Assembly: GCA_020724845.1 (NCBI GenBank)
Contig: DYGE01000005.1
Span: forward strand, 6,116 to 70,115
Reading direction: 5' to 3'
DNA length: 64,000 nucleotides
Source of the DNA: Candidatus Paceibacter sp.
GTDB lineage: Bacteria; Patescibacteriota; Minisyncoccia; UBA6257; 02-FULL-45-10c
In this document: piece after piece, positions 6,396-43,667 of the stretch
Layout of the letters: each line of letters starts with the position of its first letter
How positions within the stretch are numbered: position 1 is the stretch's first letter
Made by a program: the position numbers and the translations under genes
Notes under the pieces: generated by a model
Told to the model about the DNA's origin: nothing
Databases searched by the model: none
Seen by the model: the letters and a program-made list of their open reading frames with translations, nothing else

Positions 6396-7079
6396 TTATC
6401 CGATTTTCTCCAGAGCCAACCTGGCCGCTTCTATTTCAGCGTCTTGCTTAGACAGGCCCTTGCCTCGGGCTATTTCTTTGTCGTTGATAAACACTCCTAC
6501 CGTGAAAACTTTTTTATGATCCGGACCGCTGTCGCCAATCAGCTTATAAGCCGGAGTTTCCTTAAACTTTGCTTGCGATTCTTCCTGCAATAAACTCTTC
6601 GGATCTTTATATAGGCCCTTACTAATAACTTCTCCGATTTCCGGAAGAACAACTGCATCAACAAAATTTTGCGCCGCCGCGTATCCCCCATCCAGATAGA
6701 TCGCCCCGATTAAGGCCTCCATAGCATTGGCGAGGATAACTTCCCTGGCGCGCCCGACGTCCTTGGCCTCTCCCCTGGACATTAGAAGAAAATTTTCCAG
6801 CTTAATTTTGCGGGATAGCTTAGCCAGCATCTGATAATTGACCAGAGCGGCCCGGAAAGTAGTCAATTTGCCCTCCTGCTCTTCCGGGAATTTTTCAAAT
6901 AAGGCTTCAGTGGAAGCCAGTTCCAAAACGGCATCGCCGAGGAATTCCAATCGCTCGTTGTGAGGCAATCCCCACTTCGGATTCTCGTTTAAATAAGACC
7001 TGTGCGTCAGGGCTTCCCTTAGCAGATCTTTGTTTTTAAATTCGTAAGAGATCAGTTTCTCTAATTTTTCTGTATTCAA
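6396..7079 (-). CDS. rnc: Ribonuclease III
   Basis: RNase III signature ERLEFLGDAVLEL, C-terminal dsRBD, 227 aa. Confidence 0.9.
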   Translation of the reverse strand: MNTEKLEKLISYEFKNKDLLREALTHRSYLNENPKWGLPHNERLEFLGDAVLELASTEALFEKFPEEQEGKLTTFRAALVNYQMLAKLSRKIKLENFLLMSRGEAKDVGRAREVILANAMEALIGAIYLDGGYAAAQNFVDAVVLPEIGEVISKGLYKDPKSLLQEESQAKFKETPAYKLIGDSGPDHKKVFTVGVFINDKEIARGKGLSKQDAEIEAARLALEKIG

Positions 7080-7087
7080 ATTATTTT

Positions 7088-7168
7088 ACGAACGTACGAA
7101 AATGTACGAAAGTACGAAAGTTTTGCTATTTTTTCGTAATTTCGTATGTCTTCGTAACTTCGTACGGA
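7088..7168. repeat. Hairpin-array element A: TACGAA x4, loop, TTCGTA x4 (imperfect ~34-bp stem), filling the nusB-rnc intercistronic gap
   Basis: TACGAA at 7088, 7096, 7106, 7114; TTCGTA at 7134, 7142, 7152, 7160. Spacers are 2-4-2 nt on both arms, giving a palindromic arrangement. Confidence 0.8.
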
Positions 7169-7669
7169 TTACTTATTTTCCTCTTTCTCTTCTTGGCTGC
7201 CTGCCCGGTCAGAGGACGGGTCTTTTGGTTTGGGTTTATCATCTTTGCCCGGTTCGCCGATTTCTCTGTAAACAGTCCCTAAAACTCCGTTGATGAATTT
7301 GCCAGAATTCGGGCCGCCATAGTTTTTGGCAATTTCAATCGCCTCATTAATAGCCACCTTCGGCGGGACTTCTTCACGGTCGGCAAACAATAATTCATAA
7401 AGCCCGATTCTTAAGGCATTCCTGTCAACCGGAGCAATCTGCTCCAATGGCCAGTCGGGAGCGGCTTTAGTAATAATATCATCTATCTCTTTTTTATGCT
7501 CAATGACACCCTTCGCTAATTTCCAAGCAAATTCCGGCTCATCAATGCCGGGACCGAATTCCTGAAGATTCCTCTCCAAAATGCCGGTAAAATCGGCTTT
7601 TTGCTTATAAAAATCCCACTCGTAAAGAGATTGAAGAACTATTGATCTGCAAAGTTGTCGAGTTGCCAT
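7169..7669 (-). CDS. nusB: Transcription antitermination factor NusB
   Basis: NusB-like helical protein (LQSLYEWDF ... [13 protein letters not shown] ... [14 protein letters not shown]) with an acidic/basic C-terminal tail. Confidence 0.8.
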
Positions 7670-7670
7670 A

Positions 7671-7770
7671 TACGAAATCTAATTACGAAAGTACGAAACG
7701 GTACGAATGTACGAAATTCTTTTGACTACCCCTTTCGTACTTTAGTATATTTTCGTAATTTCGTAAGCTG
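7671..7770. repeat. Hairpin-array element B: TACGAA x5, loop, TTCGTA x3, filling the rpmF-nusB gap
   Basis: TACGAA at 7671, 7684, 7692, 7702, 7710; TTCGTA at 7734, 7752, 7760. Confidence 0.75.
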
Positions 7771-7772
7771 AT

Positions 7773-7925
7773 TTATTTCTGTTTGCAATTTGAACAAATC
7801 TTATGAGCAAGTTTCGGGGCCTGGCAATTCTGGCAAACCGCCAGCTGGACTTTTTTCAAAGCCAAATGAGATCGGCGGCGGCCAACCTTTGATCTTGTAT
7901 GATGTTTTACTGGCACTCCTCCCAT
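7773..7925 (-). CDS. rpmF: 50S ribosomal protein L32 (50 aa, below the ORF-track cutoff)
   Basis: Manual translation gives MGGVPVKHHTRSKVGRRRSHLALKKVQLAVCQNCQAPKLAHKICSNCKQK. This has the bL32 N-terminal basic motif and a CxxC...CxxC zinc ribbon. Confidence 0.85.
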   Translation of the reverse strand: MGGVPVKHHTRSKVGRRRSHLALKKVQLAVCQNCQAPKLAHKICSNCKQK

Positions 7926-15539: not shown

Positions 15540-17024
15540 TTAAGATAGCATTTTGTCAAGGAGAGTCCTTAAAACCGCCGGATTTCCCCGCCCTTTCAAT
15601 TCTTTCATAGCTTGCCCGACAAGAAATTGGATCGCGGAGCTCTTGCCGTTTTTGTAATCTTCCACAGCCTTAGGATTTGCCCCTATAACTTTCAGGACCA
15701 CTCCGCTTAACTCCCCTTCTTCAGAAACCTGCCCCAATCCTTCGTTTTCCACCAGAGTTCTCGGATCCACTCCAGATTCAAGAATCTTGACTAGCAAGTC
15801 TTTGGCTGTTCGGCTAGATATTTCTTTTTTAGAAATCATATCAATCAAGTCCGCAAAATTTTCCGGCGTAAGCTTCAAATTTGAAAAATTTAATTCTTTT
15901 TCCCTGACTAATCCCTTAAGGTCGCTGTTTAAGTAGTTAAAAAGCAATTGCAACTTGTCGGCAGGCGCGGATTCTTGATCATCAGCTTCCATTTCTGAAA
16001 CCGCCTCCTCAAAATACTCCGCCTCTTTTCTGTCTTCAACTAAAATATTCGCCTGGTCATCCGTAAGCTGAAACTGTTTCTTAAAGCGCTCCCTCTTTTC
16101 ATTAGGCAATTCCGGCACTTCTAACTTTAAAGCATCAAGATCAAAAGCGGAGCTGTCTAAAGGAGGCAAATCCGGCTCCGGGAAGTACCTGTAATCGTGG
16201 GCCTCCTCCTTAGAACGCTGGGAGGTAGTTTTCTTTTTTGCGTCATCCCAACCGCGAGTTTCCTGTTTGATATCTTTTCCATCATCCAATAGAGCAGCCT
16301 GCCTCTCAACCTCGTAATTAATGGCTTCCTCAATCGCCCTGAAAGAGTTCAGATTCTTAATTTCCACTTTTGTACCCAGCTTTCCATCTTCCATGCTCAA
16401 ACTGATATTGGCATCGCCTCTCATCTGGCCTTTTTCCAGATCAGCATCAGCCACCCCCAAATATCGCAAAATCAGCTGAAGCTCCTTGGCAAACGCCACC
16501 GCTTCCTTGACGCTATGCATATCGGGTTCCGTAACCAGCTCCATCAAAGGCAATCCGCCGCGGTTAAAGTCAACAAGCGTAGACTTCCCGTCCGGCGAGT
16601 GTACGAGCTTGCCCGCGTCCTCCTCCAAATGGACGCGATTCAATTTCACTATTTTTTTACTGCCTAACCCTTCAATAGAACTCTGGGCAAGACGCGCGGA
16701 AATATCTATAACGCCGCCCTGAACTATCGGAAGATCATATTGGGAAATCTGATAACCCTTCGGGAGGTCCGGGTAAAAGTAATTCTTTCTATCAAATTTA
16801 AAACTGTCATTGATTTTCCCTCCTACAGCCATGCCGATTTTAATCATCGCTTCTACTGCTTTTTTATTGATGACAGGAAGCGTTCCCGGGTGACCAAGGC
16901 AAATCGGGCAGACGTTGGTATTTGGATGCTTTTCTTCCGTATTATTCGGACAATCACAAAACATCTTCGTCACGGTTTTCAGCTCCGCGTGAATTTCTAA
17001 TCCAATTGTAGGTTTGTATTTCAT
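15540..17024 (-). CDS. gatB: Asp/Glu-tRNA amidotransferase subunit B
   Basis: N-terminal IGLEIHAELKT...KMFCDCPN, GatB/YqeY C-terminus. Confidence 0.92.
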   Translation of the reverse strand: MKYKPTIGLEIHAELKTVTKMFCDCPNNTEEKHPNTNVCPICLGHPGTLPVINKKAVEAMIKIGMAVGGKINDSFKFDRKNYFYPDLPKGYQISQYDLPIVQGGVIDISARLAQSSIEGLGSKKIVKLNRVHLEEDAGKLVHSPDGKSTLVDFNRGGLPLMELVTEPDMHSVKEAVAFAKELQLILRYLGVADADLEKGQMRGDANISLSMEDGKLGTKVEIKNLNSFRAIEEAINYEVERQAALLDDGKDIKQETRGWDDAKKKTTSQRSKEEAHDYRYFPEPDLPPLDSSAFDLDALKLEVPELPNEKRERFKKQFQLTDDQANILVEDRKEAEYFEEAVSEMEADDQESAPADKLQLLFNYLNSDLKGLVREKELNFSNLKLTPENFADLIDMISKKEISSRTAKDLLVKILESGVDPRTLVENEGLGQVSEEGELSGVVLKVIGANPKAVEDYKNGKSSAIQFLVGQAMKELKGRGNPAVLRTLLDKMLS

Positions 17025-17031
17025 ATTTAGA

Positions 17032-17095
17032 CCGTAGGCAGTAGCCCGCAGTCCGTAGCAATTTTTTCTACACGCTACGTACTACGATCTACGAA
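17032..17095. repeat. Hairpin-array element C (GTAG words x3, loop, CTAC words x4) between the HD-protein stop and the gatB start
   Basis: accGTAGgcaGTAGcccgcagtccGTAGcaattttttCTACacgCTACgtaCTACgatCTACg; near-identical to the element at 34557-34630. Confidence 0.75.
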
Positions 17096-18400
17096 CTATT
17101 TGGTGAATTCTAAAAGGTAATCTTTGATTTTATCCGCCTTCTTGTGAAGTTGGTCCCGATATTCGGGGAAAGCGCAAACTCGCAGCATATGGTGAGAACG
17201 CCCATATTCCACCATGGCCGCGAAATGGCTGGGGTAAAAATCGCTCAGCTTAACAATTTTCCCCTCTCTGCCGTAAACTTTCACGTCTTCCGGCACAAAT
17301 CGATGATGCGACATTGGCGGCACTACCACTATCTCGGATTCCGGGATGTCAGCTTCTTTAGCGATACCCCTCTCTAATTCGGCCAGTTTTTCCAGGGTAG
17401 AAATCGCGCCGCCGGACATGAAGCTATCCAAGACGGATTCTGACAGGCCAATCACCTGCAGAGCCTTATCTTCCCGGCGCTCATCCATCTTCACAAACTG
17501 CTCGTACTTTATCTCAATGGCTGTTTTCGGGAAATTCCCGGCCCGCAACCGGCTATTATACTTCTGAATCAGAGGATTTTGAGAAATTTCAAATCTCCCC
17601 AAAAGGCCGAAATCGGTCAATTTCCAAATGTCATGCACCGACATTCCGTCTTTGACCAGCTCATAAGCCATGTGCTGAATCAAACGCTGAATAATGGCGG
17701 ATTTTTTTCTCAAATAAACATGCTTGGACATCTTGATGTAAAAATCCTGAATCGCTTTAGCTTGGTCTATCACCTTCTCGTCCACCACCACCTGATTGTC
17801 TATAAAATAGATATAGCGGGATAAGTAAGCCACTCCGGGAACTTCCTGAATAGTATAAAATGCGTCTCGGGAGAGATAATCAAACTTTTCCATTCCCAGA
17901 TTTTTGTCGTGAATCGCGAGATAAAGCTTGTCTTCGTGCCTAAAGAACTTAAGTAAAGCTTCAAAATCCACCCCCACCTTTTCAATCGGCTCCCGCAAGT
18001 TGCTAACGATTTCAATAGCCATCGCGTCATCGGCTCGTAACCCGGATTTGCCGGCATCCGGCAGGAGATCAAACAACGGCTCGACGGTGTGCGAAAAAGG
18101 GCCATGCCCTATGTCATGATAAAGAGCATAAGCGGTCGCAAGCTTAGCCTGCTCTTTGGTAATCATGCCGCTTTCCGCCCAGCGCCTAACTAAATTCTTA
18201 GTCCTCTGGAAAGCGCCAAGACAATGCTGTTTGCGGGTGTGGGTAGCGGACGGGAAAAGCAGAAAAGCCAGCCCAAGCTGGTATTTATAAGCCAAGGATT
18301 GAAACTGCTCCACATCAATCATCGGAAGAAATTTGCTGATATCGATCAAACCGAGAATCGGATCGGAGACAATTTTCTGTTCAGGTAATTTAGCGGCCAT
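17096..18400 (-). CDS. dGTPase-family HD-domain dNTP triphosphohydrolase-like protein
   Basis: HD motif YHDIGHGPFSHTVE after HCLGAFQRT. Confidence 0.75.
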   Translation of the reverse strand: MAAKLPEQKIVSDPILGLIDISKFLPMIDVEQFQSLAYKYQLGLAFLLFPSATHTRKQHCLGAFQRTKNLVRRWAESGMITKEQAKLATAYALYHDIGHGPFSHTVEPLFDLLPDAGKSGLRADDAMAIEIVSNLREPIEKVGVDFEALLKFFRHEDKLYLAIHDKNLGMEKFDYLSRDAFYTIQEVPGVAYLSRYIYFIDNQVVVDEKVIDQAKAIQDFYIKMSKHVYLRKKSAIIQRLIQHMAYELVKDGMSVHDIWKLTDFGLLGRFEISQNPLIQKYNSRLRAGNFPKTAIEIKYEQFVKMDERREDKALQVIGLSESVLDSFMSGGAISTLEKLAELERGIAKEADIPESEIVVVPPMSHHRFVPEDVKVYGREGKIVKLSDFYPSHFAAMVEYGRSHHMLRVCAFPEYRDQLHKKADKIKDYLLEFTK

Positions 18401-19176: not shown

Positions 19177-19204
19177 ATTCTCATGTTAATCAAAAAGACC
19201 GCTG

Positions 19205-19495
19205 CCTTAAAGTATAGCAGACCAGGATACGAACTCAAATCAATTTAGCGGAGACAATTTTAGCTATATTCAAGGCGCGATGAGCGCGGTGTGGCAATAG
19301 CCACATAAGCGAAATCGCAACGAAGAAGATAGTTAAAATTGGCCCGCCCCTTGGGAAGCTTAAAAACCGGCCATCTTCTTTGTCGCTCCTCCTTGAAGTG
19401 CCTATTGGCACTCCTTCGTCGTCGCTTCTCGAATCTGCCTACTTTTTAAGCTTCTAAATTTGATTTAGTTCGTATTCTGGTCTGCATCAAGATAG
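19205..19495. repeat. ~290-bp imperfect palindromic element with 32-bp near-perfect terminal inverted repeats, sitting where rplA normally follows rplK. MITE-like or structured RNA.
   Basis: gcagaccaggatacgaactcaaatcaatttag (19215-) vs ctaaatttgatttagttcgtattctggtctgc (19459-). Inner mirrored hairpins tgtggcAATAgccaca / agtgccTATTggcact and gaagcttaaaaa / tttttaagcttc. Confidence 0.55.
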
Positions 19496-19525
19496 CGGTC
19501 TTTCACCAAGCAATTCTGTGGAAAA

Positions 19526-19951: not shown

Positions 19952-20027
19952 ATTATAAGCATTTAACGGTTAACGAATAACGATTAGTAGAGGCCTAAGC
20001 GCCAAAGGTCGAACGTTATAAGCTGGT

Positions 20028-29164: not shown

Positions 29165-31018
29165 TTATTGCCGATTTCTAAATAACGTTTTCGCAAAATC
29201 CCAGAACTCTTCTCGTCCTTGCAGTTTTTCCCAATACCACCACTCTACGCCCCACAAGTAGGCCTCGCGAAATCCTACTTCCCGCGCGTACTCAATATTT
29301 TCCTGAAATTGCTCAAAACTCAAAGACTTGTCTCGCTCTTCAGCTGACATATGCGAAGTCGGCGCCGGCCCCCAGGGCTCGGCCTGAAGTTCTACTACGA
29401 CTATATCTTCAGTATCCGCAAAATATTTAATCAGGTTCGCCTTCCAATGGAAAAAACTCGGCGGAAGGGGGTAGCGCCAGTAGCCATCCCCGGGAATCAT
29501 ATCGCTCCAGATAACTCGATACATGGTAGTCCCGAAAACATCAGCTCGCCTGGCCGCTTGAATCCACAAGCTCAACTCCCCACTGTCGGTTACAATCACC
29601 GGGCGAGCATCCAACGATCGAACTAATTCCAGCTCTTCATCCAAAAAACCCTTATCAAACTCCGGACAAATCCCAAAACCAATCAAGAATGGCTCGTTTT
29701 CCACCTGCCAATATTTGATGCTCGGGTTGTCCTTATATCTGTTAACTGTTTCGGATATCAACTCCAAAAGATTATCTTCCCGCTCCTCCTTCTCAAATTG
29801 CATAGCCCAATCGGGTATGTGGCACTCCGGCCACCTTGGAACCCTTTGCCCAACAGCCAAAATAATTTCCGCGCCTCGCGCCCCGGCTTCACTTACCTGC
29901 CAGTCCAGATTGGAAAAATCCAACTCGCCCTCTTTTTGTTCGATGTCAGTCCAATAAGCAGAAATCCTGACCTTTCTTACCCTCAACTCATCTAGCATCG
30001 CGGCGTAGGCTGCTTGCCAATCTAAGCCAAGCTCTTCGGCCCGGAACTGGCTGAAAGTCACGCCAAAATCCTTCAAACCAGGCGCCAGATCTTCCGGCCT
30101 CTCGCGAAAAGCGAGAATTGCTAGCCCCAAGAAAATGAGCAAAATCGCGATAATCTTAGTGATAATAATTTTTCTGGAAGTTATTTCTTTGAAGAGAGCC
30201 GGGTAATACCTGGAAACCCCGGCCGCCAAGATCAGCACAAAAACATATTGCACTCCGGACAACGCCTGCACCAAGGCCACGCTACCAAGAAAAATCGCGT
30301 AATTCTGCAGTAAAAAGAAAACCCCAGCCAAAGATTTATTCAAAACAAACAGGCCGGCAGCTTTCCCGGAAATTCCCCTTAAATAATCTTTTAAAGTTTG
30401 ATGGCCGCCTATCCGCGATAAATATAAAAATGCTAATCCGGCAATAAGTTCCCCCATCCTGCCAACGACAAAACCATTTACAAAACTGGTTTCCGTATAG
30501 ACATGCTTTATCAAGACAAGCGAAACGGCGAGGAGTAAAGAGCTGGCTAATACAAATACCACTGATTCTAATGTGTGGAGCAAAACATCGGATATTTTAG
30601 TAGAGATCACGATGCCACCCGCTAACAAGACTAAAAACGCAAGAAGCTGGACACTATCCAGCTTCTCAACCAGAAACCAGCTACCGACCGCCAATGTAAA
30701 AATGGCGGTTAACGAGCCGGAGAGCGGAGTCACGCGGGAGATATCGCTTATCTGGATCGCCGAATAAAGAAAAAACAGCCCAATAACATAAATCGCTCCA
30801 CTGGCAAGAGCTAGCCAAACTAGACTCGGATTCTGTACCAGCGGTCCAAGCTCAAACCCGAAAGGGACCAAAATCAGTCCGTATATTCCAAAAACCCCAA
30901 CCCAGGCGGCATAAGTGATCGGCCGCGGAATGGCGGCTTTCAAAATAACCTTATCTAAAATCGCCACCAACGCGGCGACGAAGTAAGCAAGTATCGCGAA
31001 AAATAGCCAAGAAGACAT
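29165..31018 (-). CDS. Polytopic membrane protein (~10 TM) fused to a C-terminal clan GH-A (GH5-like TIM-barrel) glycoside hydrolase domain
   Basis: N-terminal 330 aa hydrophobic; the C-terminal domain has the YWQVENEPF (NEP acid/base) motif. Confidence 0.6.
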   Translation of the reverse strand: MSSWLFFAILAYFVAALVAILDKVILKAAIPRPITYAAWVGVFGIYGLILVPFGFELGPLVQNPSLVWLALASGAIYVIGLFFLYSAIQISDISRVTPLSGSLTAIFTLAVGSWFLVEKLDSVQLLAFLVLLAGGIVISTKISDVLLHTLESVVFVLASSLLLAVSLVLIKHVYTETSFVNGFVVGRMGELIAGLAFLYLSRIGGHQTLKDYLRGISGKAAGLFVLNKSLAGVFFLLQNYAIFLGSVALVQALSGVQYVFVLILAAGVSRYYPALFKEITSRKIIITKIIAILLIFLGLAILAFRERPEDLAPGLKDFGVTFSQFRAEELGLDWQAAYAAMLDELRVRKVRISAYWTDIEQKEGELDFSNLDWQVSEAGARGAEIILAVGQRVPRWPECHIPDWAMQFEKEEREDNLLELISETVNRYKDNPSIKYWQVENEPFLIGFGICPEFDKGFLDEELELVRSLDARPVIVTDSGELSLWIQAARRADVFGTTMYRVIWSDMIPGDGYWRYPLPPSFFHWKANLIKYFADTEDIVVVELQAEPWGPAPTSHMSAEERDKSLSFEQFQENIEYAREVGFREAYLWGVEWWYWEKLQGREEFWDFAKTLFRNRQ

Positions 31019-31024
31019 AAAATT

Positions 31025-32182
31025 CTAATTTCTGATTCCTGATTCAATAATATCACGATAAACCACAACACTCCGCCTAACTTTTCTTTCCATTGTTTTG
31101 TAATCCACCTCAATTAGGCCAAACCTTGGCCCGAAGCCCTTGTCCCACTCAAAGTTATCTATCAGCGACCAATGGAGGTATCCCCGCACGTCCACGCCTT
31201 CATCTTTTGCCTTTTTCATCCATGCAACATGTTCCTTTATGAATTGGGCGCGTTTTTCATCTTTGGCGTCGGCAAGGCCGTTTTCGGTGATGTAAATCGG
31301 CTTGTTGTATTTTCTTAGGTCTTTTAGAACGCGGCATAACCCCTCCGGATAAATCTCCCAGCCGAGGTCAGAAACATTCCGGTTTTCATTTTGGTTAAAC
31401 TTGAATCCCTTGATTCGATTATGAAAATAGTAATTAAAGCCGACAAAATCTTGATAATTCCGTATCTTGTTCAAAAACCTCTTATTCCACCACCAGTCGG
31501 CGCCCCATTTCAACAAAAAATTCCACGGATTATAGCCGGCCGCTTCAAAGTAAGTGTTATTTTTCGCGACTCCGACTTGCGCGGAAGAGATATTGCTATG
31601 GATTATTTTGTAAGCCAGCTTATGAGCTTTGGCCAAATTGCGGATGGCTCCTAAATAGCCCAAAAAAGATCTTTTCTGCGGGGGCCACAAACCTCTCAAA
31701 TAGGCGTTCATCGCATAAATCATAGGCTCATTTATAGTCACCCAGTATTTTATTTCGGGAAAGCTTCTGGAAAGGACTTCTGAATATCTCTCAAAGTATT
31801 TTAAATTTTCTTTATTCTCAAAACCGCCAAGTTTGGAGAACCAGATCGGATTAGTAAAGTGCCAAAGAGTTACAAACGGCTCTAAGCCGTTTTCCCGAAG
31901 GGAAGCAAAGACTTTTTTATAATGCTCGATTTCCTTTATATCAAACTTCCCCTCCTCCGGCTCTACCCGCGCCCACTCAATGGAAAGGCGATGCGCATTA
32001 TGGCCAAGTTTTTTTGCTAAATCAAAATCTTCTTTGAACCGATTATGATGATCAGAAGCTTCGCCGGCGTCAAAGCCCGCGGCGGACCAATCATTTTTAA
32101 TTCCACCCTCAACTTGATAGGCGGAAGTGGCCGCGCCCCAAAAGAAATTATTATCGTTCTTCATCCAGATTTTTTCTTTCAT
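31025..32182 (-). CDS. GH1 beta-glucosidase
   Basis: FFWGAATSAYQVEGG (GH1 N-terminal signature), TINEP, IYITENG (nucleophile motif). Start trimmed to MKEKIW/MKNDNN to limit overlap with the upstream gene. Confidence 0.85.
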   Translation of the reverse strand: MKEKIWMKNDNNFFWGAATSAYQVEGGIKNDWSAAGFDAGEASDHHNRFKEDFDLAKKLGHNAHRLSIEWARVEPEEGKFDIKEIEHYKKVFASLRENGLEPFVTLWHFTNPIWFSKLGGFENKENLKYFERYSEVLSRSFPEIKYWVTINEPMIYAMNAYLRGLWPPQKRSFLGYLGAIRNLAKAHKLAYKIIHSNISSAQVGVAKNNTYFEAAGYNPWNFLLKWGADWWWNKRFLNKIRNYQDFVGFNYYFHNRIKGFKFNQNENRNVSDLGWEIYPEGLCRVLKDLRKYNKPIYITENGLADAKDEKRAQFIKEHVAWMKKAKDEGVDVRGYLHWSLIDNFEWDKGFGPRFGLIEVDYKTMERKVRRSVVVYRDIIESGIRN

Positions 32183-32603
32183 CAACCTCCGCCGCCACAG
32201 AATCCAAAAAAGCGCCAACTTTAGCCCTGTCCATTCCTGATAAAATTCCTTTCATCTTATTAATCTGGCCTTCTATCTCCCCAATCTGTTTCTTATATGC
32301 CAAGGCTCTGTTCGGATCCGAATCTTTAATCTTCTCCAAGATGGCTGCTTTACTATCTCTCATTGCCAAAGCATGTTCAAGCAACCCCCTAAGGCGCGTT
32401 TCAAATTCTGCTTCCGGCAGATACGCCATGCCTTTATCTCGCGCTTTTTCGGCCGAGGGGTAAACTTCTTCTGGTGAAAGCTTGCCTTCCTTGGCGAGCT
32501 TTCTGCGCATAGCCAAAGCGGCAGCCATCTTTTCTTCCATATCCTTAAGCTCGCCCGAGGAAAGATTGTTCTCCTTATTCGGTTTCTCTTTTCCGAAAGC
32601 CAT
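32151..32603 (-). CDS. Hypothetical coiled-coil protein
   Basis: 150-aa ORF with charged, helical character, tightly packed after pheT. Confidence 0.5.
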   Translation of the reverse strand: MAFGKEKPNKENNLSSGELKDMEEKMAAALAMRRKLAKEGKLSPEEVYPSAEKARDKGMAYLPEAEFETRLRGLLEHALAMRDSKAAILEKIKDSDPNRALAYKKQIGEIEGQINKMKGILSGMDRAKVGAFLDSVAAEVDERKNLDEER

Positions 32604-34549
32604 TACCTTAGCTCAACGTTAAGCTTATCAATTAATGTTTTAGTTATGACTGACATTTCTTTATCAACCTCGGAATCTTTCAAAGTGCGGTCCTCCGCCT
32701 GAAAGACTATTCTGAAAGTTAAACTCTTCCTTCGCGCATCAGGCCGCGCGCCGCGCTCCAGAGTGGTATGCTTGGCTGGCGGCGCTTCGTAGTAATCCAG
32801 CAAATCAACATCTCTGACCAGTTTTAGGCTGGTTCGCTGAATCAAAGAAAGAATGTCCCCGACGCGCGCTTTTTGAGGGACAAAAAGAGAGATGTCTCGA
32901 ACAACCGCCGGATACTTGGGGATCGCCTTGAATTCTCTGTCTTCCAGCTCGGCTCCTAGCAATTCACCTAAATCCAATTCCAGAACCGAGGCGTCTTTTG
33001 GATCTTGGGAAATCGCCAATCGTCCGACTACCTTAGTTCCAATTTCAAAACGCAACCCGCCCCCTTCATCAGCGGCCCGGTAATCGGTGATGCCTAAATT
33101 GCCAAAAATCATATCGGCCAATCCCTTGAGTTCCAAGGGCGAATCTTTAGCGGCAATACCCACGCCGAGCATCAGCCGCTCATTCAAAGAACCATCCCGA
33201 ACGGAAAATACTTTTCCGATTTCAAAAATCCGCACGGCGTCAAAAAATCTTAGATTGTCCCGTAAATTTTTAAAGAGATTCGGCGCCAGACTGTCTCGCA
33301 AATGACTGAACTGGCCGCTAATCGGATTCAGGATTTCCTGGGCGCCTTCGCCAACTTCTTCCTTAGAAAGAAATGAATAATTATATACCTCGCTAATGCC
33401 GGCGCCAGTTAATAAAGAGCGAACCCTATCTTTTAGGGTGACCTGCTCCTCTTCTTGGGCGAAGCCCATCGAAACAGTAGGCGCTTGGGCGGTTAAATTA
33501 TCAAATCCGTAAATCCTGGCCACCTCCTCTGCTAAATCCTCAATATTATTTATATCCGATCGTAAAGCCGGCACTTCTACTCTGCTACCAACCTTCTTAA
33601 AGCCAAGTGACTGCAGAGTTTGAAAAACTTCTTTAGCGGCAAATTGGCGCCCGATCATACTGTCAATCTTTTTAATGTCCACTTTCAGTAATTTTCTCGG
33701 TTGTTTTTTTGGATAAACATCAGCTGTTTTATAAACTTTGGCGCCGGCGATTTCCCGCAGGAGCTGAAGCGCCCGCTTCATACCCAATTCCGATAATTCC
33801 GGGCTTAGCTGATGAGAAAACCTGACCGAAGAATCCGTAATCAGTCCCAATTTTCTGGAAGACTGATATATACTCACGCCGTCAAAATTAGCAGCTTCCA
33901 CCAAGATGTGCTTGGTGGAATTTTTAACCTCGCTAAACTTCCCGCCCTTAATGCCGGCAACGGCAAGCGCGGAATCAGAATCGGCAATGACTAAATTGTC
34001 AGGCATTAAGCTTATTTTTTGTTCATCAATAGTTTCAATCTTCTCCCCTTTTTTGGCCGGCCTGACAATAATGCCTCCATTAACTTTATCGGCATCAAAA
34101 GCATGCAACGGCTGACCGACTTCCAGCATCACGTAATTCATAATGTCCACTACGTTATTAATGGAACGCAAACCGCAGGATTCTAAGACCTCTTTCATCC
34201 AGACCGGAGACGGCCCGACTTTGATATTAGAAACATAGGTTGCCATATAACGACGGCACAACTTCTTATCCTTGATGTTCACTGTAAACATGCCGCGCTG
34301 CCTTACATCCGGCTTCAAAGCTTTAACTGTCGGGTCGGCTAATTTAGTGCTCATGACCGCCGACACCTCCCTGGCAATGCCAAGGTGGGACGCCGCGTCA
34401 CTGTATCGGTTGGGAGAAATGGAAATGTCTAAAATATCACCACCGACATCGTCCGTTTCAAAAATATAAAGATTCAGCTTTTCTAGAAGCTGTGATTTGG
34501 TGTACATGCCTGGGGCTAGTTTTTTTATGAGATTATATGAAAATTTCAT
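32603..34549 (-). CDS. pheT: Phenylalanyl-tRNA synthetase beta subunit (short form)
   Basis: B3/4 domain, B5 and the FDAVRIFEIGKVF class II-like core. Confidence 0.85.
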   Translation of the reverse strand: MKFSYNLIKKLAPGMYTKSQLLEKLNLYIFETDDVGGDILDISISPNRYSDAASHLGIAREVSAVMSTKLADPTVKALKPDVRQRGMFTVNIKDKKLCRRYMATYVSNIKVGPSPVWMKEVLESCGLRSINNVVDIMNYVMLEVGQPLHAFDADKVNGGIIVRPAKKGEKIETIDEQKISLMPDNLVIADSDSALAVAGIKGGKFSEVKNSTKHILVEAANFDGVSIYQSSRKLGLITDSSVRFSHQLSPELSELGMKRALQLLREIAGAKVYKTADVYPKKQPRKLLKVDIKKIDSMIGRQFAAKEVFQTLQSLGFKKVGSRVEVPALRSDINNIEDLAEEVARIYGFDNLTAQAPTVSMGFAQEEEQVTLKDRVRSLLTGAGISEVYNYSFLSKEEVGEGAQEILNPISGQFSHLRDSLAPNLFKNLRDNLRFFDAVRIFEIGKVFSVRDGSLNERLMLGVGIAAKDSPLELKGLADMIFGNLGITDYRAADEGGGLRFEIGTKVVGRLAISQDPKDASVLELDLGELLGAELEDREFKAIPKYPAVVRDISLFVPQKARVGDILSLIQRTSLKLVRDVDLLDYYEAPPAKHTTLERGARPDARRKSLTFRIVFQAEDRTLKDSEVDKEMSVITKTLIDKLNVELR

Positions 34550-34556
34550 TTTTTAG

Positions 34557-34630
34557 ATCGTAGGCAGTAGCCCGTAGTTCGTAGAAATCATATTTTTATT
34601 CTACGCCCTACGCTCTACGTACTACACGCT
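34557..34630. repeat. Hairpin-array element D (GTAG x4, loop, CTAC x4) between the pheS stop and the pheT start; a copy of element C
   Basis: atcGTAGgcaGTAGcccGTAGttcGTAGaaatcatatttttattCTACgccCTACgctCTACgtaCTACa. The first 30 nt are near-identical to 17032-17060, including the junction with the start codon. Confidence 0.75.
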
Positions 34631-34633
34631 ATT

Positions 34634-35713
34634 TCAGAATTGTTTAATAAACCTCAAATCTCCCGAATAAAATAAACGGATATCCGGAATATTATATTTA
34701 ATCATTGCAATTCGTTCCAGGCCTAGGCCGAAAGCGAAACCTTGCAAATCGCGGGGATTGTAGCCAGCCGCCTCAAAAACCCGCGGATGCACCATGCCCG
34801 CTCCCATAACCTCAAGCCAACCGGAATTCTTGCAGATATTACAGCCATTGCCGCCGCACTTCACGCACTGAATATCAACTTCCAACCCAGGCTCAACGAA
34901 AGGAAAATAACTCGGTCGGAGCCGAATGGAAAGTTTTCTTTTAAATAACCTCTGGAAAAATTCTCGAATGACGAACTTGAAATTCGCCAGATTCGCGTCT
35001 TTGCCGACCATGAGCCCCTCAACCTGATGGAAATTAGTTTCATGGGAAGCGTCAGTCGCCTCATAGCGGAATACTCTTCCAGGAACAATAATCTGAAACG
35101 GAGGCTTGTGCTGCTCCATATACCGCACTTGCACTGGACTCGTGTGAGTCCGAAGTAACAACCTTTCGCCGCCGCCTTGCCGTTTTGTTCTTTTGTTCTT
35201 TTGTTCTTTTGTTCTTCCGTCATTTTGGCGTAGCCAAAATGTATCCCACATATCCCGAGCCGGATGGTCTTTGGGTATGTTAAGAGCGTCAAAATTATAA
35301 TAATCGCTCTCCGCCTCCGGGCCTTCTACCACCGAGAAATTCAAAGATTTAAAAATTTCCCTTATCTCCTTTTCTACTGACGTCAGCGGATGCAGACTGC
35401 CGCGCTGAACCTTTCTGCCGGGCCTAGTTAAATCAATATCAGCTTGTAGCTTGTGGCTTGCAGCTTGCAGAGACTTCAACTTTTCGCTAAGGGCAGATTC
35501 TATTTCTTGGCGAAGAGCGTTAGCGAGCGGGCCAATCTTCTTTTTTTCAGCGATGCTAAAATCTTTTAAAGAACGCAAAATCTTGGTGAGTTCTCCTTCT
35601 TTCCTGCCTAGGAACTTAACCCTCAAAGATTCTAAAGAAGCGGCATCCGCCGCGGCTTTAATGCTCTTAAGCGCATCCTCTCTCAACCTTTTTATATCAA
35701 TATCCTTAGTCAT
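34634..35713 (-). CDS. pheS: Phenylalanyl-tRNA synthetase alpha subunit
   Basis: Class II motifs FPFVEPGLEVDI, GAGMVHPRV. Contains an internal (TTTTGTTC)x4 microsatellite at 35170-35215. Confidence 0.9.
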   Translation of the reverse strand: MTKDIDIKRLREDALKSIKAAADAASLESLRVKFLGRKEGELTKILRSLKDFSIAEKKKIGPLANALRQEIESALSEKLKSLQAASHKLQADIDLTRPGRKVQRGSLHPLTSVEKEIREIFKSLNFSVVEGPEAESDYYNFDALNIPKDHPARDMWDTFWLRQNDGRTKEQKNKRTKRQGGGERLLLRTHTSPVQVRYMEQHKPPFQIIVPGRVFRYEATDASHETNFHQVEGLMVGKDANLANFKFVIREFFQRLFKRKLSIRLRPSYFPFVEPGLEVDIQCVKCGGNGCNICKNSGWLEVMGAGMVHPRVFEAAGYNPRDLQGFAFGLGLERIAMIKYNIPDIRLFYSGDLRFIKQF

Positions 35714-39106: not shown

Positions 39107-39240
39107 ATTTTTTATTTAATTATTAATAAATTTAAAGAAAGCGACTTGGAGTTTAATTCTAACATTTTGCTATAAAACTTAAAATGTAAAAGTGTGTATA
39201 AAGTAGGGCGCCTTTCCCAATCTAACCCTCCTCACAAATT

Positions 39241-39265
39241 AAAAAACGGCCAAAGCCGTTTTTTA
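39241..39265 (-). terminator. Intrinsic terminator immediately 3' of tRNA-fMet
   Basis: aaaaaACGGCcaaaGCCGTtttttt. Confidence 0.6.
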
Positions 39266-39270
39266 ATTTG

Positions 39271-39343
39271 TTGCGGGGGTTGGATTCGAACCAACGATCT
39301 TTTGGTTATGAGCCAAACGAGATAACCACTTCTCCACCCCGCG
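39271..39343 (-). tRNA. Initiator tRNA-fMet (CAT)
   Basis: CGCGGGGTGGAGAAGTGGTTATCTCGTTTGGCTCATAACCAAAAGATCGTTGGTTCGAATCCAACCCCCGCAA. Near-identical at both ends to E. coli tRNA-fMet, with a C1xA72 mismatch, the CUCAUAA loop and an A73 discriminator. Confidence 0.85.
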
Positions 39344-43394: not shown

Positions 43395-43513
43395 GGCAGG
43401 CTCCTAGATCAACTTTTGAACAAGCTTATTATATTTTAAAATATAATTGCAGCATTGTGAACCTTTTCGGGAAAGCTTTAGTTTTCCTGACTCACTTTTT
43501 GTTCAAATCCGGT

Positions 43514-43539
43514 CGCAAAAATAAAAATTGGACTTAAGT
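43514..43539. terminator. Palindromic terminator 3' of tRNA-Asp
   Basis: aaaaATTGGACTTAAGTCCAATttttt. Confidence 0.6.
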
Positions 43540-43545
43540 CCAATT

Positions 43546-43620
43546 TTTATTTTTGCGGGCGCGACCGGATTTGAACCGGCGGTCTCCTCCGTGACAGGGA
43601 GGCGTGTTAACCAGGCTACA
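43546..43620 (-). tRNA. tRNA-Asp (GTC)
   Basis: GGGCGCG-TG-GTGT-AGCCTGGTTA-ACAC-G-CCTCC-CTGTCAC-GGAGG-AGAC-CGCCGG-TTCAAAT-CCGGT-CGCGCCC-G. Discriminator G73. Confidence 0.85.
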
Positions 43621-43667
43621 CCACGCGCCCATATTTAAAAAAGCATAAGCTAAACCGAAGCCAATGT

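Follow-up and report, generated by a model that had tools for sequence, protein, structure and literature searches.

Introduction

The Correia/NEMIS elements of Neisseria and the ERIC sequences are co-transcribed with the genes that flank them, their hairpins are cut by RNase III or RNase E, and the expression of the neighbouring genes is altered. RNase III sites are also found in the intercistronic hairpins of the phage T7 early mRNA and in the leader of E. coli rnc, where the hairpins are irregular and carry internal loops. The cyanobacterial short tandemly repeated repetitive (STRR) sequences, attributed to Mazel et al. 1990, reportedly consist of tandem heptanucleotide units that are intergenic and belong to one lineage. 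Direct repeats of the heptamer TAACTGA occur in Beggiatoaceae, some Cyanobacteria and Bacteroidetes, where their function is unknown; they lie between genes in 2-6 copies of one orientation and end a few nucleotides before start codons without a Shine-Dalgarno (SD) sequence, relatives differ by insertions and deletions in steps of 7 nt, and proteins of the S1, Csp or CsrA type have been proposed to bind them (MacGregor 2015, PMC4679880). The TAACTGA repeats are the nearest published analogue of the subject of this report, a set of four intergenic elements, A to D, in 64,000 nt of DNA from Candidatus Paceibacter sp. (GenBank assembly GCA_020724845.1, contig DYGE01000005.1, positions 6,116 to 70,115 of the forward strand), a stretch that is called the window throughout.

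Each of the four elements combines several copies of a short word, a loop, and inverted copies of the same word. They are members of a real, lineage-wide class of word-array hairpins in the Paceibacteria, a class not previously described: a literature search that excluded most subscription papers found nothing relevant for Patescibacteria. An earlier account of the window, made without database searches and referred to below as the preliminary description, had not recognised the design as a described element; for Patescibacteria no description was found, but part of the design does have an analogue in the TAACTGA heptamers. We tentatively interpret A to D as dispersed RNA leader hairpins, maintained by selection, that would tie the translation of the downstream gene to that of the upstream gene. 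The mechanism is one that we infer, and the interpretation as a whole falls a little short of what we would call probable.

Anatomy of elements A to D

All four elements occupy a co-directional gap from stop codon to start codon (Table 1), in the gene orders rpmF-B-nusB-A-rnc, HD-domain gene-C-gatB and pheS-D-pheT. The positions and words reported in the preliminary description were borne out by the present analysis, as was the placement in co-directional gaps. The gene upstream of gatB, where the operon might suggest gatA, encodes an HD-domain protein (PF01966). The elements are 65-100 nt in size, and each arm is built from 3-5 tandem words and not from a single 20-40-nt palindrome. In A and B the inverted words follow the direct words at mirrored spacing, and 9 of the 14 TACGAA words of the 64-kb window lie inside these two elements. 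C and D have four (C)GTAG words and then four CTAC(G) words, spaced by exactly 7 nt. The copies had been thought to recur at roughly helical-turn spacing; the actual distances are 7 nt in C and D and 8-10-8 nt in A and B. The near-identity of the arms that C and D share was confirmed, 28 of 32 positions being the same in the two start-proximal arms. The hairpin base of A lies 4 nt past the nusB stop and 7 nt ahead of the TTG start of rnc.

On the transcribed (minus) strand, fold prediction gives a single long interrupted hairpin for each of A to D, with predicted stems of 22-31 bp that contain small internal loops and are made up of helices of 4-7 bp. None of 200 shuffles matched the fold energy of any of the four (z from -3.7 to -6.9; Table 1), in agreement with the long imperfect hairpins proposed at the outset. 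Inspection likewise confirmed that there is no T-run in A to D. Canonical terminators with a GC-rich stem and a T-run occur elsewhere in the window, so that A to D represent a different kind of hairpin, and a terminator reading was rejected on anatomy. At A to D the Rfam search returned no match even at E<=1, and the gathering score was reached by three tRNAs only. The contig of the window is present in four independent assemblies in which the elements are identical; hence A to D are not assembly artefacts.

Integron attC sites, CRISPR arrays and TIGR arrays were considered as identities for A to D and rejected, as the neighbours are housekeeping genes, the units are words of 7-10 nt, and there are no spacers of guide length. 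The same applies to TIGR-Tas, a system that turned up in the literature search: A to D show no features of such repeat-spacer guide arrays.

Table 1. Elements A to D, the genes next to them and the solo heptad arrays of the window (fold energies in kcal/mol, with z-scores)
Feature	Coordinates	Strand	Gap occupied	Fold energy; z	Remarks
Element A	7087..7164	(-)	nusB-rnc, 7080-7168	-29.6; -6.9	4x (G)TACGAA(A) at 8-10-8 nt (7087, 7095, 7105, 7113), 14-nt loop, 4x TTCGTA at 8-10-8 (7133, 7141, 7151, 7159)
Element B	7671..7766	(-)	rpmF-nusB, 7670-7772	-27.7; -4.3	5 direct TACGAA (7671, 7684, 7692, 7702, 7710) and 4 inverted words, TTCGTA (7734, 7752, 7760) and the degenerate TTAGTA (7742); 8-10-8 core; paralogue of A
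Element C	17028..17095	(-)	HD-domain gene to gatB, 17025-17095	-26.5; -3.7	heptad hairpin; sense 4x CGUAG-N2, loop, 4x CUAC-N3; 3' arm stops 3 nt before gatB ATG
Element D	34554..34631	(-)	pheS-pheT, 34550-34633	-27.8; -4.1	heptad hairpin; paralogue of C; 3' arm stops 4 nt before pheT ATG
rnc (RNase III)	6396..7079	(-)			TTG start directly after element A
nusB	7169..7669	(-)			B upstream, A downstream
rpmF (ribosomal protein L32, 50 aa)	7773..7925	(-)			upstream of B; PF01783 at orthologous locus
gatB	15540..17024	(-)			downstream of C
HD-domain gene (PF01966)	17096-18400				upstream of C and gatB
pheT	32603..34549	(-)			downstream of D
pheS	34634-35713				upstream of D
Solo heptad array	19956..19987	(-)	in nusG-rplK gap		sense UCGUUAU UCGUUAA CCGUUAA; no inverted partner; ends about 11 nt before rplK ATG
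Solo heptad array	31017..31051	(-)			sense GAAUCAG GAAUCAG AAAUUAG AAUUUU AUG; overlaps end of GH1 gene and abuts start of open reading frame 29165-31018

A class of heptad arrays across the Paceibacteria

The NusB protein encoded in the window places it in the Paceibacteria (Patescibacteria, or Candidate Phyla Radiation, CPR), near Candidatus Harrisonbacteria. For comparison, 80 nusB loci from different related species (L005-L084) were assembled, and the total sequence scanned amounted to 1.18 Mb. In dozens of these 80 genomes, hairpins of the design seen in A to D, made of other words, occupy the orthologous rpmF-nusB and nusB-rnc junctions, and the design is found at other junctions as well. 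The word pairs at rpmF-nusB and nusB-rnc are GCGACTAG/CTAGTGGC, GGTAATT/AATTACT, GGAACTAG/CTAGTTCC, TAGAAT/ATTCTA, GAAATTAG/CTAATTTC and TTGAAAA/TTTTCAA. The further copies and the conserved orthologues in many related genomes decisively uphold the view that A to D belong to a real family and are not chance low-complexity sequence.

A detector that asked for at least 3 direct and at least 3 inverted identical 4-mers yielded 20 matches and missed B and C; it was dropped as too strict, and a gapless palindrome scan and autocorrelation were used in its place. The palindrome scan of the 1.18 Mb found 286 hairpins, as against 40 in shuffled sequence. Periodic arms were present in 26 of the 286, and the period was 7 nt in 23 of these 26. 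Among intergenic gaps, a period of 7 was seen in 26 of 793 and a period of 14 in 13 of 779, every other period in the range 2-15 being limited to 0-2 gaps. Heptad arrays numbered 160 in the 1.18 Mb compared with 7 in shuffled sequence, and arrays of period 8 or 9 were as few as 7-10; per 100 kb this corresponds to 13.6 heptad arrays in the clade versus 2 in E. coli, of which 100 kb was scanned. The class is thus overwhelmingly 7-nt periodic, the TACGAA family being an 8-10-8 variant. Stop codons in all frames were considered as the cause of the heptad and rejected in general, since there is no stop codon within the words TACGAA, GUAC and CUAC.

Intergenic DNA carries the arrays at approximately 8-13 times the density of coding DNA. 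There are 0.065 per kb in coding sequence, 0.22 in convergent gaps, and 0.5-0.84 where the gap is co-directional or divergent. Many of them are solo, that is, without an inverted partner. Two such solo arrays lie in the window (Table 1) and belong in one class with the arms of A to D that face the start codon; the initial count of four copies was therefore too low, for the window itself and all the more for a class that is lineage-wide.

Placement relative to stop and start codons

The start codons of rpmF, nusB and rnc were fixed by homology (n=229). In the 45 nt upstream, 57 of these 229 verified starts have a trinucleotide that occurs at least three times at exactly 7 nt (other periods, 3-15), and the distance from the end of the array to the verified start is 0-23 nt, mostly 5-14 nt. 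The rpmF-nusB and nusB-rnc gaps are bimodal: either they are no longer than 30 nt (n=57, median 9) or one hairpin fills the gap (n=37), 24 of the 37 hairpin-filled junctions being nusB-rnc. At the filled junctions the distance from the stop codon to the hairpin base has a median of 4 nt and that from the base to the start codon a median of 9 nt (interquartile range 7-12). Added together, the two unpaired flanks have a median length of 14 nt, which means that the unpaired length of a filled gap equals that of a short junction. The approximately 9 nt before the start codon are unpaired and A/U-rich.

Over all gene starts in the 80 comparison loci and the window, an SD-like motif is present in 14.7% of genes against a background of 11.9%, and the leaders are A/U-rich. 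The SD signal is essentially absent clade-wide, which makes its absence a trait of the lineage and not of the element-bearing genes.

Arrays may also share sequence with the 3' end of the preceding reading frame and provide its stop codon, as seen for rpmF in L212 (about 1400-1500) and L005 (9918-9930). Where arrays supply the upstream stop, their gain or loss alters protein C-termini. The length of NusB among relatives ranges from 140 to 209 aa.

Polarity and gene dependence

The arrays next to start codons are polar. On the sense strand, CTA prevails over TAG (16 vs 5) and TTC over GAA (9 vs 0), and 37 start-proximal arrays are pyrimidine-rich compared with 18 that are purine-rich (p=0.014). 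Of the 26 array-hairpins, 18 have a purine-rich 5' arm, as do 16 of the 19 in which the difference is clear, while hairpins without arrays have no purine bias of the 5' arm (127 vs 111). The form of the element depends on the downstream gene: rpmF is preceded by 11 solo arrays and 5 hairpins, nusB and rnc together by 11 solo arrays and 30 hairpins (Fisher p=0.006). No gene has a hairpin before it as consistently across genomes as rnc, with 14 hairpins vs 5 solo arrays.

Selection, turnover and dispersal

Conservation is much higher in orthologous elements than at synonymous sites. The arms of A and of its counterpart in L205, which has the same junction, words and 8-10-8 spacing, are identical at 56 of 64 positions with 41% identity at 4-fold sites (p = 6e-10). 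Between L005 and L008, 65 of 66 arm positions are identical and the loop has been replaced, with 4-fold sites at 50% (p = 1e-13), and the whole elements of L055 and L069 agree at 61 of 69 positions with 4-fold sites at 39% (p = 2e-12). Identities of 88-98% at a divergence where 4-fold sites are saturated (39-50%) show that the elements are under purifying selection. An orthologue of A with the same words, spacing and junction is present in L205-L210. In the paralogues A and B the words are identical at 47 of 48 positions and the spacers at 8 of 16. A strain comparison (L002-L004) revealed no substitutions within the elements and was thereby uninformative.

The same junctions nevertheless turn over fast. 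L205 and L211, at 65-80% 4-fold identity, have different word families at nusB-rnc, and in L005, L011 and L013 there is no element and the genes overlap or are adjacent. Close relatives may thus carry another word family or no element at orthologous junctions, which are filled, empty or replaced. Word families are genome-specific, for example AGAATCT four times in L056 and ACGAATT several times in L029, yet they recur across genomes.

Signs of dispersal are the words and 8-10-8 spacing common to A and B and the arm common to C and D. In a metagenome scan for (GTACGAA)x3 the matches listed were mostly unrelated tandem repeats, with at least about 8 of the hairpin design, and among these listed matches TACGAA 8-10-8 elements abut the starts of other genes (L109, L118, L135, L139 and L203). 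A/B, C/D and the junctions of relatives show copies that are dispersed, are present or absent at orthologous sites and end in inverted repeats, as Correia/ERIC elements do. The flanks of A, of B and of filled and empty nusB-rnc junctions, compared without an exact empty site, have no clear target-site duplication. No transposase, RAYT/Y1 included, turned up in the 64-kb window, whose reading frames were partly scanned, and no genome-wide search was made. Taken together, the family looks like one that has been dispersed and copied, and retained by selection once in place.

The metagenome matches listed also include (L106, L107, L113, L142 and others) an unrelated marine or salt-marsh family of 8-nt periodic GTAC-N4 words (GTACGAAA, GTACTTTC, GTACACGT), which occurs in both orientations and extends over hundreds of bases.

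Possible roles of the hairpins

The start-proximal, pyrimidine-rich heptad array could act as an SD-independent translation leader, a probable platform either for the 30S subunit or for OB-fold proteins, of which S1 and Csp are examples, and the purine-rich upstream arm would mask it. A ribosome that terminates approximately 4 nt from the hairpin base would open the outer module and reinitiate at the nearby start, with the result that translation of the downstream gene would be coupled to that of the upstream gene and damped relative to it. The long interrupted duplex might additionally be a substrate of RNase III, and A directly precedes rnc; such processing is compatible with coupling and attractive for A. 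Copying from one junction to another and slippage by heptads would generate new copies, which would account for the genome-specific word families and for their fast gain, loss and replacement. Coupling would fit the equivalence of hairpin-bridged and short junctions, as well as the occurrence of hairpins before low-abundance enzymes and of open arrays before ribosomal-protein genes. When D is folded under constraints that mimic a ribosome on the stop codon, the free part of the leader grows from 4 to 17 nt. It is conceivable, if on the whole doubtful, that the Paceibacteria use a pyrimidine-rich heptad repeat (about CUR-N4) as a general leader, paired with an inverted anti-leader to form coupling hairpins that are opened by the ribosome; the repeated words would then allow the stem to open and re-zip module by module.

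Several observations weigh against translational coupling. The sense and antisense folds of some 31 elements are about equally stable (17 sense, 14 antisense), and with no strand preference the G-U wobble does not prove that selection acts on the sense RNA. The constrained fold with a ribosome at the stop codon changes little in A and C, and in B the arms simply pair again in another register. Modest numbers and a simple classifier underlie the statistics on gene dependence and polarity, and a minority of elements (L024, L054, L019-B and L050-B) have the reversed polarity, with the purine-rich arm beside the start. Finally, the identity of the words in all units exceeds what in-register pairing needs and no compensatory pair changes were seen; invariant words without compensatory changes could point to a sequence-specific factor acting in trans.

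The preliminary description had put forward RNase III sites, coupling or attenuation structures, and repeats akin to repetitive extragenic palindromes (REPs) or miniature inverted-repeat transposable elements (MITEs). All three remain candidates, and the data favour an RNA role linked to the start codon together with dispersal. Dispersal on its own would suffice if the elements were REP/BIME- or MITE-like palindromic repeats without host function, selfish or generated by mutation, which spread and slip by heptads and whose copies persist only where the hairpin folds away and leaves the stop-start coupling intact. In favour of this are the genome-specific word families (A/B and C/D, AGAATCT in L056, ACGAATT in L029), the presence, absence and replacement among close relatives (L205 vs L211; L005, L011 and L013), and the TACGAA 8-10-8 architecture at unrelated loci of other genomes, and it sits well with folds that lack strand preference and with an effective stop-to-start distance that is the same with and without an element. 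However, neutral junk would not stay 88-98% identical at a divergence that saturates synonymous sites, nor would A and B be expected to keep their words while the spacers drift (47/48 vs 8/16). Selfish DNA would not be expected to show the purine-to-pyrimidine polarity of the arms or the gene-dependent use of solo arrays and hairpins, and neither a target-site duplication nor a transposase came to light, the latter without a genome-wide search. Overall we consider selfish repeats somewhat unlikely as the full explanation.

The remaining alternatives grant the elements a function other than coupling. As RNase III processing or stability sites they would separate cistrons for differential decay, A serving in the autoregulation of rnc. 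The interrupted duplexes of 22-31 predicted bp with small internal loops, their strictly intercistronic position and the preference for rnc (14 hairpins vs 5 solo arrays; 24 of the 37 filled junctions) all agree with such a role, which is not exclusive of coupling; yet solo arrays hold the same position before starts without any duplex, mismatches every 6-7 bp may hinder cleavage as easily as help it, and both the 7-nt periodicity and the polarity of the arms are left unexplained, so that processing is improbable as the principal function. A sequence-specific protein, either TRAP/HutP-like on UAG-N4 or a DNA regulator, would instead make the arrays primary and the hairpin secondary. Words that are identical within an element and kept in paralogues and orthologues while spacers vary are what such sites should look like, TACGAA, CTAGTGG/GCGACTAG, TAGAAT, GAAATTAG and TTGAAAA recur in different genomes, and many arms are exact arrays of UAG-N4, the repeat format bound by HutP of B. 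subtilis. On the other hand, several unrelated words in one genome (TACGAA and GTAG in the window) would call for several factors, a spacing of 7 bp turns each site to another face of B-DNA than the site before it, no protein emerged as a candidate, and an mRNA role agrees better than a DNA operator with the tight placement from stop to start and with the scarcity in convergent gaps; we judge protein-binding arrays a distinctly unlikely basis for the class. Least plausible, and to our mind very improbable, are factor-independent terminators or attenuators that dispense with a U-tract: the hairpins are stable and lie inside operons, but their modular stems are A/U-rich and lack T-runs in a genome that has ordinary GC-stem terminators with T-runs elsewhere, convergent gaps, in which one would look for terminators, are poor in them, and they would separate pheS from pheT, two genes that need co-expression.

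Other features of the window

A non-coding gap of 349 nt (19177-19525, minus strand) follows rplK at the usual place of rplA. Its fold has an energy of -134.5 kcal/mol (z = -9.4), it has no Rfam match at E<=1, and the ends that close it are inverted repeats of about 30 bp in which TACGAA/TTCGTA occurs; it could be a structured RNA of a new type or a larger palindromic insertion. Two tRNA genes, tRNA-Met (39270-39343) and tRNA-Asp (43555-43630), are each followed by a trailer. In both, the distal arm of the trailer shows complementarity to the tRNA's 3' part, which gives near-perfect palindromes of 25-32 bp (39219-39286 and 43510-43561, respectively) that overlap the end of the tRNA.

Significance

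CPR bacteria are, to our knowledge, uncultured, and we know of no described mechanism by which their translation starts without an SD. A class of elements that spans stop and start codons offers a concrete handle on initiation, coupling and operon stoichiometry in this lineage, and it may help to explain the heptamer repeats of Beggiatoaceae, cyanobacteria and Bacteroidetes. Since the arrays mark true starts and operon junctions, they could improve gene calling in metagenome-assembled genomes of Patescibacteria, and their fast turnover makes the elements usable as strain markers. If the broader interpretation as leader and anti-leader were true, it would amount to a lineage-wide code for initiation and coupling without a described counterpart, mechanistically related to the TAACTGA repeats.

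Comparison with known systems

REP/BIME, Correia/ERIC and T7-type sites each share single features with the Paceibacteria elements and fail on others. The intercistronic RNase III sites of T7 and the E. coli rnc leader are likewise irregular hairpins between cistrons, and rnc is preceded by one just as it is by A; they are, however, unique sequences without tandem periodicity. With Correia/NEMIS and ERIC the elements have in common that they are dispersed inverted repeats which form long hairpins and are present or absent at orthologous sites. In contrast to these, which are 100-150 bp long and have terminal inverted repeats of unique sequence and TA target duplications, the Paceibacteria elements have periodic arms and an exact stop-to-start placement, and no target-site duplication was seen.

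The REP/BIME elements of Proteobacteria, which are mobilised by RAYT transposases, are also small, dispersed, intergenic imperfect palindromes, often located in operons and species-specific, and they have known effects on mRNA stability and translation. Their GTAG/CTAC motif is shared by the words of C and D, whereas the words are different ones in A, in B and in most relatives. REPs are single palindromes of 20-40 nt where the Paceibacteria elements have arms of 3-5 tandem words, and they are found mainly after genes, unlike the Paceibacteria elements, which precede starts and are sparse in convergent gaps (0.22 vs 0.5-0.84 per kb). The STRR arrays of cyanobacteria are longer and are not described as paired hairpins that abut starts.

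The TAACTGA system differs in using one fixed heptamer, whereas the Paceibacteria have many word families (TACGAA, GTAG, CTAGTGG and others). An inverted partner is known there from one case, while most arrays at the nusB and rnc junctions of the Paceibacteria are paired; the phylum, Patescibacteria, is a different one, and the 8-10-8 spacing of A and B is unlike that of the heptamers. What the two systems have in common is the core of the design: tandem units of 7 nt, as in C, D and 23 of the 26 array-hairpins, and an array that ends close to a start codon without an SD.

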